A stretch of DNA of 64,000 nt from Minisyncoccota bacterium (GCA_036400935.1 DASWWW010000001.1:46096-110095), one strand, 5' to 3'. Shown: positions 22,952 to 33,577, counted from the first letter of the stretch. Numbers and translations: made by a program. The notes: generated from the sequence alone by a model not told the origin.

Positions 22952-23170
22952 ATGAAAAAAATATTAATTTTGCTTGCGGTGATAGCTGTGGTGGCGTTTT
23001 TCTGGCCTAAGGAGTTTACTTCGTCGCCTGGATTCGTATCTCAGGAGACATATCAGCAGTTTGAGGCTACAAAGGCCGAGTGTTACGGGTTCGAGCGCCT
23101 TACCAATGCCGAGGCTATGGCGGCTGATGCCCCTGGCATCAGCCAGTGCTTTGGCTGGCTCGCCCGATAG
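22952..23170 (+). CDS. small membrane-anchored protein (72 aa)
   Basis: N-terminal TM MKKILILLAVIAVVAFFW; two Cys. Confidence 0.35.
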   Translation: MKKILILLAVIAVVAFFWPKEFTSSPGFVSQETYQQFEATKAECYGFERLTNAEAMAADAPGISQCFGWLAR

Positions 23171-23179
23171 GATATAGTA

Positions 23180-23680
23180 GTGCGCATGGACGCGAATATT
23201 CCATCAATTCACCCTCATCCTTGGCTCGAAGAAGACGTTGCGGCGCTTGAGGCCACGAAGAACTTCGCTGAGATAGGCGAAATCGTCAAAAATGTGGCCC
23301 TCAGGCTACCTCATAAGGTCGCTATGATTTCTGGACCGATGACTTCGGGAGGAAAAGGCTCGAATGCCGAGAATCTGGCCGCATATCAGAGGGCTATGGA
23401 GTATGTTCGGTCGCGAGGCCATTTCGTATTCGATCAGTTGCCGGGCGAAAGGGCCTTGAAAAAGCATTGGCATGCATGGAATGCCGCGCAGACAGTGCAG
23501 CCGCCCGGATATTGCTGGGAGCTTTTGCCGGGAGTATACGGGCCGATCTTCGAATCGGGGCAGATAAAGACGATATTCTTTATGCCAGATTGGAAAAGCT
23601 CGAAGGGCTCTGCCTGGGAGCATGAAATGGCGGAGAAGCTAGGCATTGAGAGGGTATATATCCCGCTTAATTGGGAATAG
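23180..23680 (+). CDS. hypothetical protein, possibly DUF4406 / nucleoside 2-deoxyribosyltransferase-like
   Basis: MISGPMTSGGKGSNAENLAAYQRAMEYVRSRGHFVFD resembles the DUF4406 N-terminus; weak. Confidence 0.35.
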   Translation: MRMDANIPSIHPHPWLEEDVAALEATKNFAEIGEIVKNVALRLPHKVAMISGPMTSGGKGSNAENLAAYQRAMEYVRSRGHFVFDQLPGERALKKHWHAWNAAQTVQPPGYCWELLPGVYGPIFESGQIKTIFFMPDWKSSKGSAWEHEMAEKLGIERVYIPLNWE

Positions 23681-23753
23681 CATCACTTGTAGAAGCATAG
23701 AAGAAAGCCGCGATCCAATGGTCGCGGCTTTCTTCTATTGATATACTAAATGC

Positions 23754-32034: not shown

Positions 32035-32769
32035 ATGAGAGCCATGTTCTTTGCCTTTCTGTCGCTCGTTGCCGGCGTCATCTCGCGAGCGCAGACCGCA
32101 TCAGTTGAGTCTCCGGATAAGGACGCGGTAGTTTCGATGCTCCCGTTTATTGTTGCTGAGGGGAAGTACGTCGGCTATCGCTTTCACATCAAAGCGAGCC
32201 GTCGTGATCCTGTCAGCGGAGAGCCGATCATCGATCAGCTTTCCGTGAAGGATGTCGTTCTTGATTCTGTGCCTGGTCGCGCTGGGTTTCGGGACGGCTT
32301 TGAGATTAAGACGATTCAAGGCGTGCCGGTCGAGGGTCAAGACTATGAGTCCCTTGTTAAGAAAATCTTAGAGGCAATCCGGATCCAGAAGTCCCCGCAC
32401 ATACTTCGGTTTAGCGTCATTGATCACAAAATAAGCGCCGATTCTCGATCTATATTCGGATCGGCAAAGCTCCTGAGGAAAACAATCAGCCGAGCGATGG
32501 TCCTGTTAAGGAGTAAGGCTCGATCCGTTGCGAGGCCGCCTATTAATTTAGGCGGCTTTTTTATTGCCGATAAGCCACAAATTGTATCCCGCGAGAACAA
32601 TGGGAAACGCATTCGAGAGTATTCCAACGCCATCGGTGTTCCCAAATATGAAGTAAGCGAGCAAGAGCAGGTTGCCCGATATGCTCATGTACCAGAATCC
32701 GCGCGAAACCACGGAGTTGCCGGCTTTGCGAGAGGTTATTACCTGCAGAACCCAGCGTCCGGCAAATAG
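32035..32769 (+). CDS. secreted hypothetical protein; 3' third overlaps the convergent LAB_N gene, so the end is uncertain
   Basis: Signal peptide MRAMFFAFLSLVAGVISRAQT; the C-terminal ~70 aa are low-complexity and lie antisense to a well-supported gene. Confidence 0.3.
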   Translation: MRAMFFAFLSLVAGVISRAQTASVESPDKDAVVSMLPFIVAEGKYVGYRFHIKASRRDPVSGEPIIDQLSVKDVVLDSVPGRAGFRDGFEIKTIQGVPVEGQDYESLVKKILEAIRIQKSPHILRFSVIDHKISADSRSIFGSAKLLRKTISRAMVLLRSKARSVARPPINLGGFFIADKPQIVSRENNGKRIREYSNAIGVPKYEVSEQEQVARYAHVPESARNHGVAGFARGYYLQNPASGK

Positions 32770-32844
32770 CGCCGATCCCATAATGCCAATAATTTGCCAG
32801 CCGGTTATATCGAAATTCCCTAAGTGTATGAATATATTATGCAT
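32548..32844 (-). CDS. lipid-A-disaccharide synthase N-terminal domain (LAB_N) small membrane protein
   Basis: WQIIGIMGSALFAGRWVLQVITSRKAGNSVVSRGFWYMSISGNLLLLAYFIF fits the LAB_N family; always partnered with GtrB-like GT2, which is directly upstream. Confidence 0.6.
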   Translation of the reverse strand: MHNIFIHLGNFDITGWQIIGIMGSALFAGRWVLQVITSRKAGNSVVSRGFWYMSISGNLLLLAYFIFGNTDGVGILSNAFPIVLAGYNLWLIGNKKAA

Positions 32845-33508
32845 GTTGTTTCATCTTTCGAGACAGGTGCTTCCTGATAAGCATCAGATGGCTCAGGCCT
32901 CTCACCGCGCGCCCCGAATTTGAATACTTGCTCTTTCCGGCGAAACGAGGGCGCTCCGCGATCGACAGCTCCGCGATCGACAGCTCCGCTCCGGCTAGCA
33001 AGTCTGGAATGAACCGATGCAGTCCTTCAAAAGGGAATAGGTGTTGGACGTGGCCCTTTCTGAATGCCTTCAGGGCGCATCCGGCATCGCGAGTTGCGCC
33101 GCTGCCCAGGACGAGCATGCGCGCCTTGTTGCCAATAATACCGCCGATTTTCTTGCTGATCGAGCTTTCGCGCTTCTCCCTATATCCGAATGCGCAATCT
33201 GCTTTTTTCAGGGCCTCGACTAGCCGCCCTATGTCACGAGGATCGCTCTGTCCGTCGCCGTCCATGGTCGCGCAGATATCGCCCGATGAGGCGAGCAGGC
33301 CTTCATAGATAGCAAATCCCTTTCCTTTGTTTGATGCGAAAGAAACTGTCCTAATGCCCGGAATGCTCTTAATAGCCTCTGTTGTGCCGTCTGTGCTTCC
33401 GTCATTTGCAACAATAATCTCTGCGTCTGGGTACAGATCGCGCACTTCATCCACGACGCGGCCTATCGACTCCTTCTCATTATAGACGGGGATCACTATC
33501 GAGATCAT
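32837..33508 (-). CDS. polyprenol-phosphate glycosyltransferase, GT2 family (GtrB/DPM1-like)
   Basis: MISIVIPVYNEKESIGRVVDEV...IIVANDGSTDGT...MDGDGQSDP (DxD); start at MISIVIP. Confidence 0.75.
   Translation of the reverse strand: MISIVIPVYNEKESIGRVVDEVRDLYPDAEIIVANDGSTDGTTEAIKSIPGIRTVSFASNKGKGFAIYEGLLASSGDICATMDGDGQSDPRDIGRLVEALKKADCAFGYREKRESSISKKIGGIIGNKARMLVLGSGATRDAGCALKAFRKGHVQHLFPFEGLHRFIPDLLAGAELSIAELSIAERPRFAGKSKYSNSGRAVRGLSHLMLIRKHLSRKMKQHA
32957..32986 (-). repeat. 15-bp perfect tandem duplication inside the GT2 gene (cgcgatcgacagctc x2), encoding AELSIAELSIAE
   Basis: Read directly from sequence. Confidence 0.9.
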
Positions 33509-33577
33509 GGCAGTAGTATATCCCAGTTTTTGCCTACTGTTAGATGATATACTTGGACTAATTAGCAAAAGAAATTT

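Follow-up and report, generated by a model that had tools for sequence, protein, structure and literature searches.

Transmembrane glycosylation systems of three or more components share a common logic, in which a glycosyltransferase of family 2 (GT2) makes a lipid-linked monosaccharide, which is then used by a glycosyltransferase of the GT-C fold. Examples are GtrA/GtrB/GtrC, CsbB/GtcA/YfhO, and ArnC/ArnE-F/ArnT, of which the GT2s carry two C-terminal transmembrane helices, the flippases are of the GtrA or small multidrug resistance (SMR) type, and the acceptor of ArnT is lipid A. A layout consisting of a cytoplasmic GT-A enzyme, a separate transmembrane protein, and a GT-C has also been described, and the flippase is often unlinked in known multi-component systems (PMC8035078). 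Like the locus presented here, GacI/GacJ/GacL of Streptococcus pyogenes and PpgS/Rv3632 of Mycobacterium tuberculosis combine a hairpin-less GT2 with an adjacently encoded three-helix partner. GacJ, a DUF2304 protein of ~100 amino acids (aa) with three helices, binds to GacI, which is thereby stimulated, and Rv3632 does likewise with PpgS (10.1101/180810). In the Gac system, a PMT_2-type GT-C carries out the extracytoplasmic transfer (10.1101/180810; PMC8035078). Here, we analyzed a stretch of 64,000 nucleotides (nt), called the window in its full length, from a genome of Candidatus Paceibacterota, a lineage of the Candidate Phyla Radiation (CPR). The window contains a GT-C gene and, convergent with it, a gene pair encoding a GT2 and a LAB_N protein (Table 1).

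We consider it likely that these three genes make up a lipid-carrier-dependent extracytoplasmic glycosylation module with a two-subunit donor synthase. The module belongs to the class of three- or multi-component transmembrane glycosylation systems, of which the general form is already textbook knowledge; new here is a split synthase with a SemiSWEET-fold LAB_N subunit within a system of this known kind. In the proposed pathway, LAB_N, with its three helices, would provide a docking site for the unanchored GT2 on the inner side of the membrane, where the GT2 would move one sugar from a nucleotide sugar onto polyprenyl phosphate. LAB_N would thereby substitute for the C-terminal two-helix hairpin of GtrB, ArnC, and dolichol-phosphate mannose synthase (DPMS), in a role like that of GacJ for GacI. 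The polyprenyl-phosphate sugar would then move to the outer leaflet, a step for which LAB_N, given its SemiSWEET fold, is a candidate flippase. Finally, the GT-C would hand the sugar to an extracytoplasmic acceptor by means of Asp37-Glu38 in its first loop and of a lipid-phosphate site formed by a conserved Arg-Tyr pair. Inferred in this pathway are the physical association of the GT2 with LAB_N and the flipping of the product, as well as sugar and acceptor.

The GT2 was placed by sequence comparison. Its best NCBIfam match was an ArnC-like equivalog (2.8e-20), followed by PpgS, PgfS, and AglJ, all below cut-off, and its matches in the PDB were ArnC (4e-16, over residues 2-196 and including the DxD region), the DPMS of Pyrococcus furiosus (7.5e-11), and GtrB (4e-7). 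By these matches, it belongs among the polyprenyl-phosphate glycosyltransferases of the ArnC/DPMS/GtrB-like kind. Although it is closest to ArnC, no transmembrane segment was found in it, in contrast to the two helices of GtrB-, CsbB-, and ArnC-type enzymes. An earlier note, made from the sequence of the window, had described it as a polyprenol-phosphate GT2 with its usual LAB_N partner, convergent with a polytopic transferase gene. The convergent arrangement was confirmed, as was the pair, with a Pfam E-value of 3.5e-28 for the GT2 and a score of 66.9 bits for LAB_N (cut-off 26.7). The 2 genes overlap by 8 nt, and a promoter-like site directly before the GT2 start suggests that they share a leaderless transcript. 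Within the GT2 gene, a 15-nt unit is perfectly repeated in tandem (2.5 copies, 32953-32989) and encodes AELSIAELSIAE; the length is unchanged relative to the ArnC alignment.

The AlphaFold model of the LAB_N protein, with a mean predicted local distance difference test (pLDDT) score of 84, consists of a short hairpin and three helices. Its top fold matches were SemiSWEET proteins (TM-score 0.63-0.77, root-mean-square deviation 2 Å), followed by the mitochondrial pyruvate carrier (MPC) and cystinosin. The SemiSWEET fold agrees with the published placement of LAB_N in the PQ-loop/SWEET/MPDU1 superfamily (PMC3281891). Stand-alone LAB_N proteins are widespread, and annotation pipelines call them “lipid-A-disaccharide synthase N-terminal domain” proteins. 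No functional study of a stand-alone LAB_N (PF07578) was found in the searchable literature, and a lead on lgmD of Bordetella yielded nothing usable.

LAB_N and the transmembrane hairpin of the GT2s were found to be complementary in their distribution, which is a new finding of this analysis. For the GT-C family, we compared the annotated contigs of 6 homologs and 73 loci from species-representative genomes, queried with the window proteins; the loci and contigs compared in this analysis are labeled by L-numbers (L001, L008, etc.). Near GT-Cs of this family, all 7 GT2s without transmembrane segments (~220-237 aa; found in the window, L002, L005, L008, L011, L018, and L021) adjoined a LAB_N gene, in either gene order. 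In contrast, all 19 long GT2s (309-384 aa) in the GT-C loci carried C-terminal transmembrane segments, 18 of them two or more, and LAB_N was found beside none (Fisher p ~1.5e-6, computed by hand from 7/7 versus 19/19). Similarly, in a set of 80 metagenome loci retrieved with a LAB_N alignment, all 27 distinct GT2s adjacent to LAB_N lacked transmembrane segments, and stopped at ~226 of the 310 positions of the GT2 model. A GT2 of this hairpin-less kind was encoded within 200 nt of LAB_N in 14 of the 34 metagenome loci that were informative for adjacency. No natural GT2-LAB_N fusion was detected in the list of LAB_N homologs or in the metagenome loci, where long stop-free stretches turned out to lie in different frames.

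Based on this pattern, we propose a split synthase in which LAB_N is the membrane subunit, supplied in trans in place of the hairpin of GtrB, ArnC, and DPMS. The SemiSWEET fold points to the same role, and LAB_N may be a flippase as well. GacJ and Rv3632 are DUF2304 proteins, whereas LAB_N belongs to another family, for which position and hairpin complementarity suggest the same role. If this is correct, the strict pairing of LAB_N with hairpin-less GT2s gives the family a concrete and testable role.

The Gac system includes a Wzx-type flippase, GacK, which has no counterpart in the window locus: no GtrA- or Wzx-type flippase was found among the scanned genes of the locus or among the 25 families listed (the top 25) in a Pfam survey of the rest of the window. 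One conceivable arrangement is that a dimer of the SemiSWEET-fold LAB_N forms a coupled synthase-flippase with the GT2, as a bacterial counterpart of MPDU1, the PQ-loop/SWEET-superfamily protein that eukaryotes need to use the Dol-P-sugars Dol-P-Man and Dol-P-Glc (PMC3281891). The dimer would then present polyprenyl phosphate to the GT2 and also move the finished polyprenyl-phosphate sugar outward. In this CPR lineage, the sugar would go on to a GT-C acting on secreted proteins, for which the flanking PDZ proteins would serve as acceptor adaptors. We regard this as an unlikely extension of the split synthase. Because of the fold and superfamily of LAB_N, the bacterial pair would nonetheless be a simple model for the old question of how sugars linked to polyprenyl or dolichyl phosphate are passed on or flipped, if the proposed pathway is true.

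The polytopic protein is 100% identical to a protein from a metagenome-assembled genome that is named “glycosyltransferase family 39 protein” at NCBI, and the earlier note had likewise labeled it as GT39 and as PMT/ArnT-like. The GT39/PMT label could not be maintained. Neither Pfam PMT (PF02366) nor PMT_2 (PF13231) matched the window protein at a reporting limit of E<=0.1, so that “GT39” is NCBI’s name rather than a tested assignment. The protein also showed no match to the C-terminal PMT_4TMC domain or to the NCBIfam Pmt equivalog NF058602, to which a homolog (P0011) scored 24.8 bits against a cut-off of 800. Most homologs with 30-44% identity carry a precomputed PF13231 annotation, and only some carry PF02366. 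A single-sequence phmmer search against PDB sequences returned nothing, and a sequence profile gave only weak matches, to ArnT (0.064) and TMEM260 (0.18).

The AlphaFold2 model of this protein (pLDDT 92, predicted TM-score 0.92, ~12 helices) matched GT-C enzymes exclusively in Foldseek, namely AglB/STT3 (4e-7), ArnT (3.9e-6), ALG9 and ALG12, Pmt4 (6.8e-5), DPY19, Emb, and AftB. The best mutual TM-score was to ArnT (5ezm, 0.58/0.54). AglB/STT3, ArnT, and ALG9 outranked Pmt4, and Pmt1/2 aligned over ~230 residues only. On the matter of ArnT versus PMT affinity, which the earlier note had raised, the comparison gave no clear preference for either side; in fold, STT3/AglB, ArnT, and ALG9 are at least as close as Pmt. 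An alignment of 35 homologs showed conservation of D37-E38 (SLWIDEG), W130-E131, W134-S135-R136-Q137, R139-G140-Y141, and R298-Y299, as well as of S361, Q363, P364, and F366 (SPQPDF motif), with both D37 and E38 kept in at least 90% of the sequences. The invariant Y299 aligned, in a weak profile alignment (E 0.064), to the tyrosine of the ArnT “GYIVP” motif, which we take to be a binder of undecaprenyl phosphate. Actinobacterial Ppm1/Pmt and eukaryotic DPM1/MPDU1/PMT (GT39) similarly combine a GT2-made lipid-phosphate-sugar donor with a GT-C bearing a loop-1 Asp-Glu, but this motif is common to other GT-C families and not specific to PMTs. As judged from the model and these matches, the polytopic protein is a GT-C transferase of a distinct subfamily that cannot be assigned to PMT/GT39, and its acceptor is not deducible from the modeled fold.

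The single NCBIfam match of the GT-C was TIGR03663 (Agl23; 53 bits, E 2.7e-14), which raises the alternative that the polytopic protein is a translocator or “utilization” factor for the lipid-linked sugar, with the true transferase encoded elsewhere. In Haloarcula hispanica, Agl23 and the GT2 Agl22 handle hexose-P-dolichol, with flippase activity in proteoliposomes (PMC11182771). Full-length homologs of the window protein with 25-30% identity occur in the archaeal Methanosarcinales, Woesearchaeota, Nanohaloarchaea, and Haloferacaceae; several of them adjoin a GT2, an arrangement that is often seen in this group. However, we rejected membership in the Agl23 family, as the score lies far under the cut-off of 126 (126.25) bits; archaeal and CPR homologs score 34-45 bits, and none of the archaeal ones reaches the cut-off. 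Moreover, the loop-1 acidic motif, the Arg-Tyr site, and the extracytoplasmic C-terminal domain are all kept, as is typical of catalytic GT-Cs. A role as translocator is therefore very improbable.

Linkage of the genes is conserved as well. Of 18 close family members, 12 have a gene for a polyprenyl-phosphate-type GT2 at a distance of less than 10 kb from that of the GT-C, and 2 of the 6 others are on short contigs. As the 64-kb window contains exactly one GT-C, one such GT2, and one LAB_N, this linkage is unlikely to have arisen by chance. It persists where the gene order or the type of GT2 differs, and the trio recurs with other PMT/PMT_2 GT-Cs in five loci outside the CPR (L081, L091, L122, L131, and L153), Proteobacteria-type contigs included. 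The GT2/LAB_N/GT-C trio is thus a widespread module; directly supported are the linkage of its genes and, for each component, the assignment to a fold and a family. The pathway logic of the earlier note, in which the GT2 charges a lipid carrier, a small partner assists, and the GT-C transfers the sugar, gains support from the ArnC/DPMS/GtrB-like GT2, from the GT-C fold with its loop-1 Asp-Glu, and from the 12/18 linkage.

Several observations weigh against a common pathway. In four close relatives, no GT2 is encoded in the 10 kb around the GT-C gene. In the window, the GT-C gene belongs to a different transcription unit from the GT2/LAB_N pair, on the opposite strand. LAB_N occurs without an adjacent GT2 in ~20 of the 34 informative metagenome loci, suggesting that it has other roles or partners too. 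The SemiSWEET match was obtained with a model of just 98 aa, at Foldseek E-values of just 0.04-0.1, and the nearest named NCBIfam relative of the GT-C, Agl23, is described as a flippase, not a transferase. The absent GT2s, the strand arrangement, and the solitary LAB_N genes would also fit a chance juxtaposition of a GT-C and a functionally unrelated pair. This explanation is hardly credible, given a GT2 near the GT-C in two thirds of the close relatives against a single such gene in the whole 64-kb window, a linkage that outlasts rearrangement and exchange of the GT2 type, and the recurrence of the trio with unrelated PMT_2 GT-Cs outside the CPR.

In the earlier note, the module was read as a dedicated pathway for O-glycosylation of the Ser/Thr-rich surface proteins encoded next to it. 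Taken as a PMT/GT39-type pathway, it would have the GT-C transfer its sugar to Ser/Thr residues of the secreted proteins encoded immediately upstream and downstream. This was not established by our analysis, as the PMT tests fail and synteny of the proteins with the GT-C is limited to close relatives. The genomic context does offer some support. On both sides, the trio is surrounded by genes for secreted or N-anchored proteins, in a run of ~15 kb. The window contains no further GT2, GT-C, or LAB_N gene, and the 25 Pfam families listed for its remaining part are of the housekeeping kind. The order NusA, secreted-protein block (IGW, S74, and others), GT-C, and GT2 recurs in L001, L008, and L021, and also across a contig break in a Taylorbacteria genome (L164 and L002). 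In L008, the closest representative genome, a second GT-C paralog lies in the middle of the block (L008 3868-5355; 31% identical to that of the window), followed by a PDZ gene, and in L005 the trio is located between 2 type IV pilus clusters. PMTs and TMEM260 are furthermore among the distant relatives of the GT-C, as is Agl23, a protein-glycosylation factor.

Secreted PDZ proteins, which are peptide-binding, provide another pointer towards a protein acceptor. Single-PDZ genes flank the GT-C gene of the window on both sides, and a PDZ gene lies within 113 nt of the GT-C gene in all 6 cases counted for the GT-C copies of the window, L008, and L005. The upstream protein had been called a PDZ protein before; as a single sequence it reached 21.4 bits against a Pfam cut-off of 27, and the call became firmer with a profile of six homologs, which matched the PDZ domains of DegP, DegQ, and MAST, with E-values down to 5e-8 (DegP). 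The downstream paralog is a gene that was absent from the earlier list. An iterative profile search found PDZ neighbors in the window, L008, and L005 only, and the association of PDZ proteins with this GT-C is therefore narrow.

Against a protein acceptor stands, apart from the failed PMT tests, the close relationship of the syntenic genomes. Their NusA proteins are 87-90% identical, against 31-44% for GT-C, 41-49% for GT2, 43-63% for LAB_N, and 54-68% for the IGW and S74 proteins, and NusA and PPase are syntenic as well in the genomes that share the block. With NusA this similar, the order from block to GT-C is expected from ancestry, and we down-weighted it as evidence of functional coupling. 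Of the linkage that the earlier note had thought worth following across genomes, it was thus the GT-C/GT2 part that was found to be conserved, while synteny of block and GT-C was seen only where NusA is 87-90% identical. Between the block and the GT-C gene lies a strong terminator-like hairpin (30403-30430). The description of the block proteins as Ser/Thr-rich applies in part: Ser and Thr account for 17-25% of six of them, against 10-13% in housekeeping neighbors, but only the 733-aa and IGW proteins contain dense stretches of these residues. For the IGW family, more than 3,100 homologs (clusters) were found, against 40 detected members of the GT-C family, in searches of differing sensitivity. 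Other members of the GT-C family are found in loci with GT4, GT1, Wzx, ABC, and sulfotransferase genes, and in monoderm bacteria, the acceptors of characterized PMT_2 GT-Cs are teichoic acids and wall polysaccharides (PMC8035078). Taken together, we hold dedicated protein O-glycosylation to be possible, but doubtful.

Alternatively, the acceptor could be a non-protein component of the envelope, such as a teichoic-acid-like polymer, a wall polysaccharide, a lipoglycan, or a membrane glycolipid, with the neighboring surface proteins as bystanders in a conserved envelope island. Precedents are CsbB/GtcA/YfhO, GtlA/GtlB, Csd, and GacI/J/L, and every characterized Gram-positive PMT_2-type GT-C listed has a glycopolymer acceptor (PMC8035078); the acceptors of the Gac and PpgS systems are polyrhamnose or arabinogalactan, while the system described here resides in a CPR bacterium. 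Among 133 neighbors of GT-C family genes in 25 loci, the most common were GT2 (11), GT1/GT4 (6), and Wzx-type Polysacc_synt (5), followed by a second PMT_2 (4), LPG_synthase_TM (3), and sulfotransferase (2), and L004, L006, and L007 are typical polysaccharide loci. In addition, the best mutual TM-score of the GT-C was to ArnT, which has a lipid acceptor, and the same trio occurs in Proteobacteria-type contigs. However, no gene for polysaccharide or teichoic-acid assembly was seen in the window (top 25 Pfam families), and the PDZ neighbors and the pilus context point to proteins instead. To our knowledge, lipid A is not expected in CPR bacteria, and no lipid A genes were noticed within the window. 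A non-protein acceptor is a reasonable candidate that we favor tentatively, short of calling it probable. For the acceptor as a whole, we therefore place a wall glycopolymer or glycolipid first, if without conviction, the secreted proteins of the envelope island behind it as a serious contender, and leave the remainder to other acceptors.

Whichever the acceptor, the comparison of loci fits a fixed chromosomal site with a fast-evolving surface-decoration locus, as donor cassettes are swapped, extra GT-C copies occur, and divergence is far above that of NusA. In L001, for instance, a GT4 and a long, hairpin-bearing GT2 take the place of the LAB_N/short-GT2 pair. Surface glycosylation is almost unexplored in CPR bacteria, which are host-attached and depend on their envelope, and such a site, if confirmed, would be a candidate locus of surface variation. 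Tandem GT-C pairs also seem to be common in this family. An open reading frame (ORF) of 700-780 aa lies directly 3' of the GT-C gene, on the same strand, in L012, L015, L022, L024, L026, and L044, and the equivalent ORF in L004 and L017 is ~580 aa long, that of L004 being a PMT_2 protein.

Table 1. Features of the glycosylation locus and its surroundings, in coordinates of the window.
Feature	Coordinates	Strand	Evidence
Small N-anchored protein of 72 aa, at the 5' end of the block	22952..23170	+	N-terminal hydrophobic segment; -10-like box 7 nt 5' of ATG
DUF4406/nucleoside 2-deoxyribosyltransferase-like protein	23180..23680	+	Pfam DUF4406 6e-07; PHROG 355 1.9e-08
733-aa secreted protein	23754..25955	+	Ser+Thr 25%, 18 Cys, without known domain
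330-aa secreted IGW/GW-repeat protein	26027..27019	+	GW motifs; syntenic in L001, L008, L021, L164
97-aa N-anchored protein, Ala/Pro-rich linker	27026..27319	+	ORF and N-terminal segment
187-aa secreted fiber-like protein, C-terminal Peptidase_S74 intramolecular-chaperone domain	27374..27937	+	Pfam 2.3e-15
263-aa secreted protein, 10 YSEGYYPP repeats, 12 Cys	27954..28745	+	Tandem repeat with 27-nt period, 9.6 copies
164-aa N-anchored protein	28758..29252	+	L008 homolog at 3e-41
170-aa secreted protein	29304..29816	+	Homolog in L008
Secreted single-PDZ protein, directly 5' of the GT-C gene	29879..30376 (probable start 29939)	+	Pfam PDZ_6 2e-4
Terminator-like hairpin (11 bp, 6 GC, T-run), boundary of block and GT-C gene	30403..30430	+	
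490-aa GT-C-fold membrane glycosyltransferase, ~130-aa C-terminal extracytoplasmic alpha/beta domain	30489..31961	+	AlphaFold2 model, Foldseek, motifs
Second secreted PDZ paralog, between the GT-C and LAB_N genes	32035..32769	+	Homology over first ~110-170 aa
Hairpin and T-run at the LAB_N stop codon, inside the plus-strand PDZ ORF	32532..32559	.	
98-aa LAB_N protein, three transmembrane helices	32548..32844	-	Pfam LAB_N (PF07578) 1.7e-18
223-aa GT2 without transmembrane segments, polyprenyl-phosphate glycosyltransferase catalytic subunit	32837..33508	-	Pfam GT2 3.5e-28
Promoter-like site, -10 box ending 7 nt before the GT2 start	33515..33543	-	
160-aa N-anchored protein and three N-anchored Cys-rich (14-20 Cys) paralogs	33578..37466 (paralogs 34067-37466)	+	

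All ORFs listed in the earlier note were present, at the coordinates and on the strands given there, and its starts for the GT-C (30489) and GT2 (33508) genes agree with those of homologs and with a -10-like box. Its statement that all ten genes of the block (22952-30376, plus strand) encode a signal peptide or N-terminal anchor holds for nine of them, which have an N-terminal hydrophobic segment; no hydrophobic N-terminus was found in the product of 23180-23680, which is thus not a surface protein. The Peptidase_S74 domain, the YSEGYYPP array, and the IGW repeats were all recovered as described (Table 1). The 733-aa protein had been called a repeat protein, but showed no significant internal repeat in a BLASTP search against itself, although two similar segments of ~110 aa can be discerned by eye; homologs are encoded upstream of the GT-C gene in L008 and L010. 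The family-defining part of the IGW protein is its N-terminal IGW-repeat domain of ~160 aa. Its homologs are confined to the CPR, and every one of them is unnamed or “hypothetical” and without a Pfam domain.

A prophage or tail-fiber origin of the block was considered and discarded, since only the S74 protein matched PHROG tail-fiber families, through its C-terminal chaperone part alone, and since the block is syntenic beside NusA in four other genomes. Around residues 92-101, the S74 protein contains a Ser-Asp-Lys-Lys-Leu-Lys stretch (YTSDKKLKANI), at the position where intramolecular-chaperone domains cleave themselves. If it were cleaved there, the mature fiber would be just ~70 residues long. 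The homolog in L001 has a pilin-like Shufflon_N N-terminus.

The second PDZ ORF runs antisense through the LAB_N gene over its last ~220 nt (222 nt). Its 3' end as annotated is only putative, as the homology stops early and a hairpin lies inside the ORF; this hairpin (32532-32559) is possibly a bidirectional terminator. On the other side of the GT2/LAB_N pair, the genes of 33578-37466 are kept beside the pair in relatives, often together with DsbA; in L002 and L008, homologs of the three Cys-rich paralogs occupy the same place, beside a DsbA-like gene. Boxes resembling a -10 element, of the form TATA(A/C)T (22939-22951, 23741-23753, and 33509-33543), end ~7 nt before the starts of the genes at 22952 and 23754 and of the GT2 gene at 33508, suggesting that several genes of the locus are transcribed as leaderless mRNAs. 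Lastly, a tyrosine-recombinase gene of the phage integrase family lies near the start of the window (814-1863), and two tRNA-Gly(tcc) genes are located 4.2 kb apart (6902-6973 and 11113-11186); together, these may bound an integrated element.

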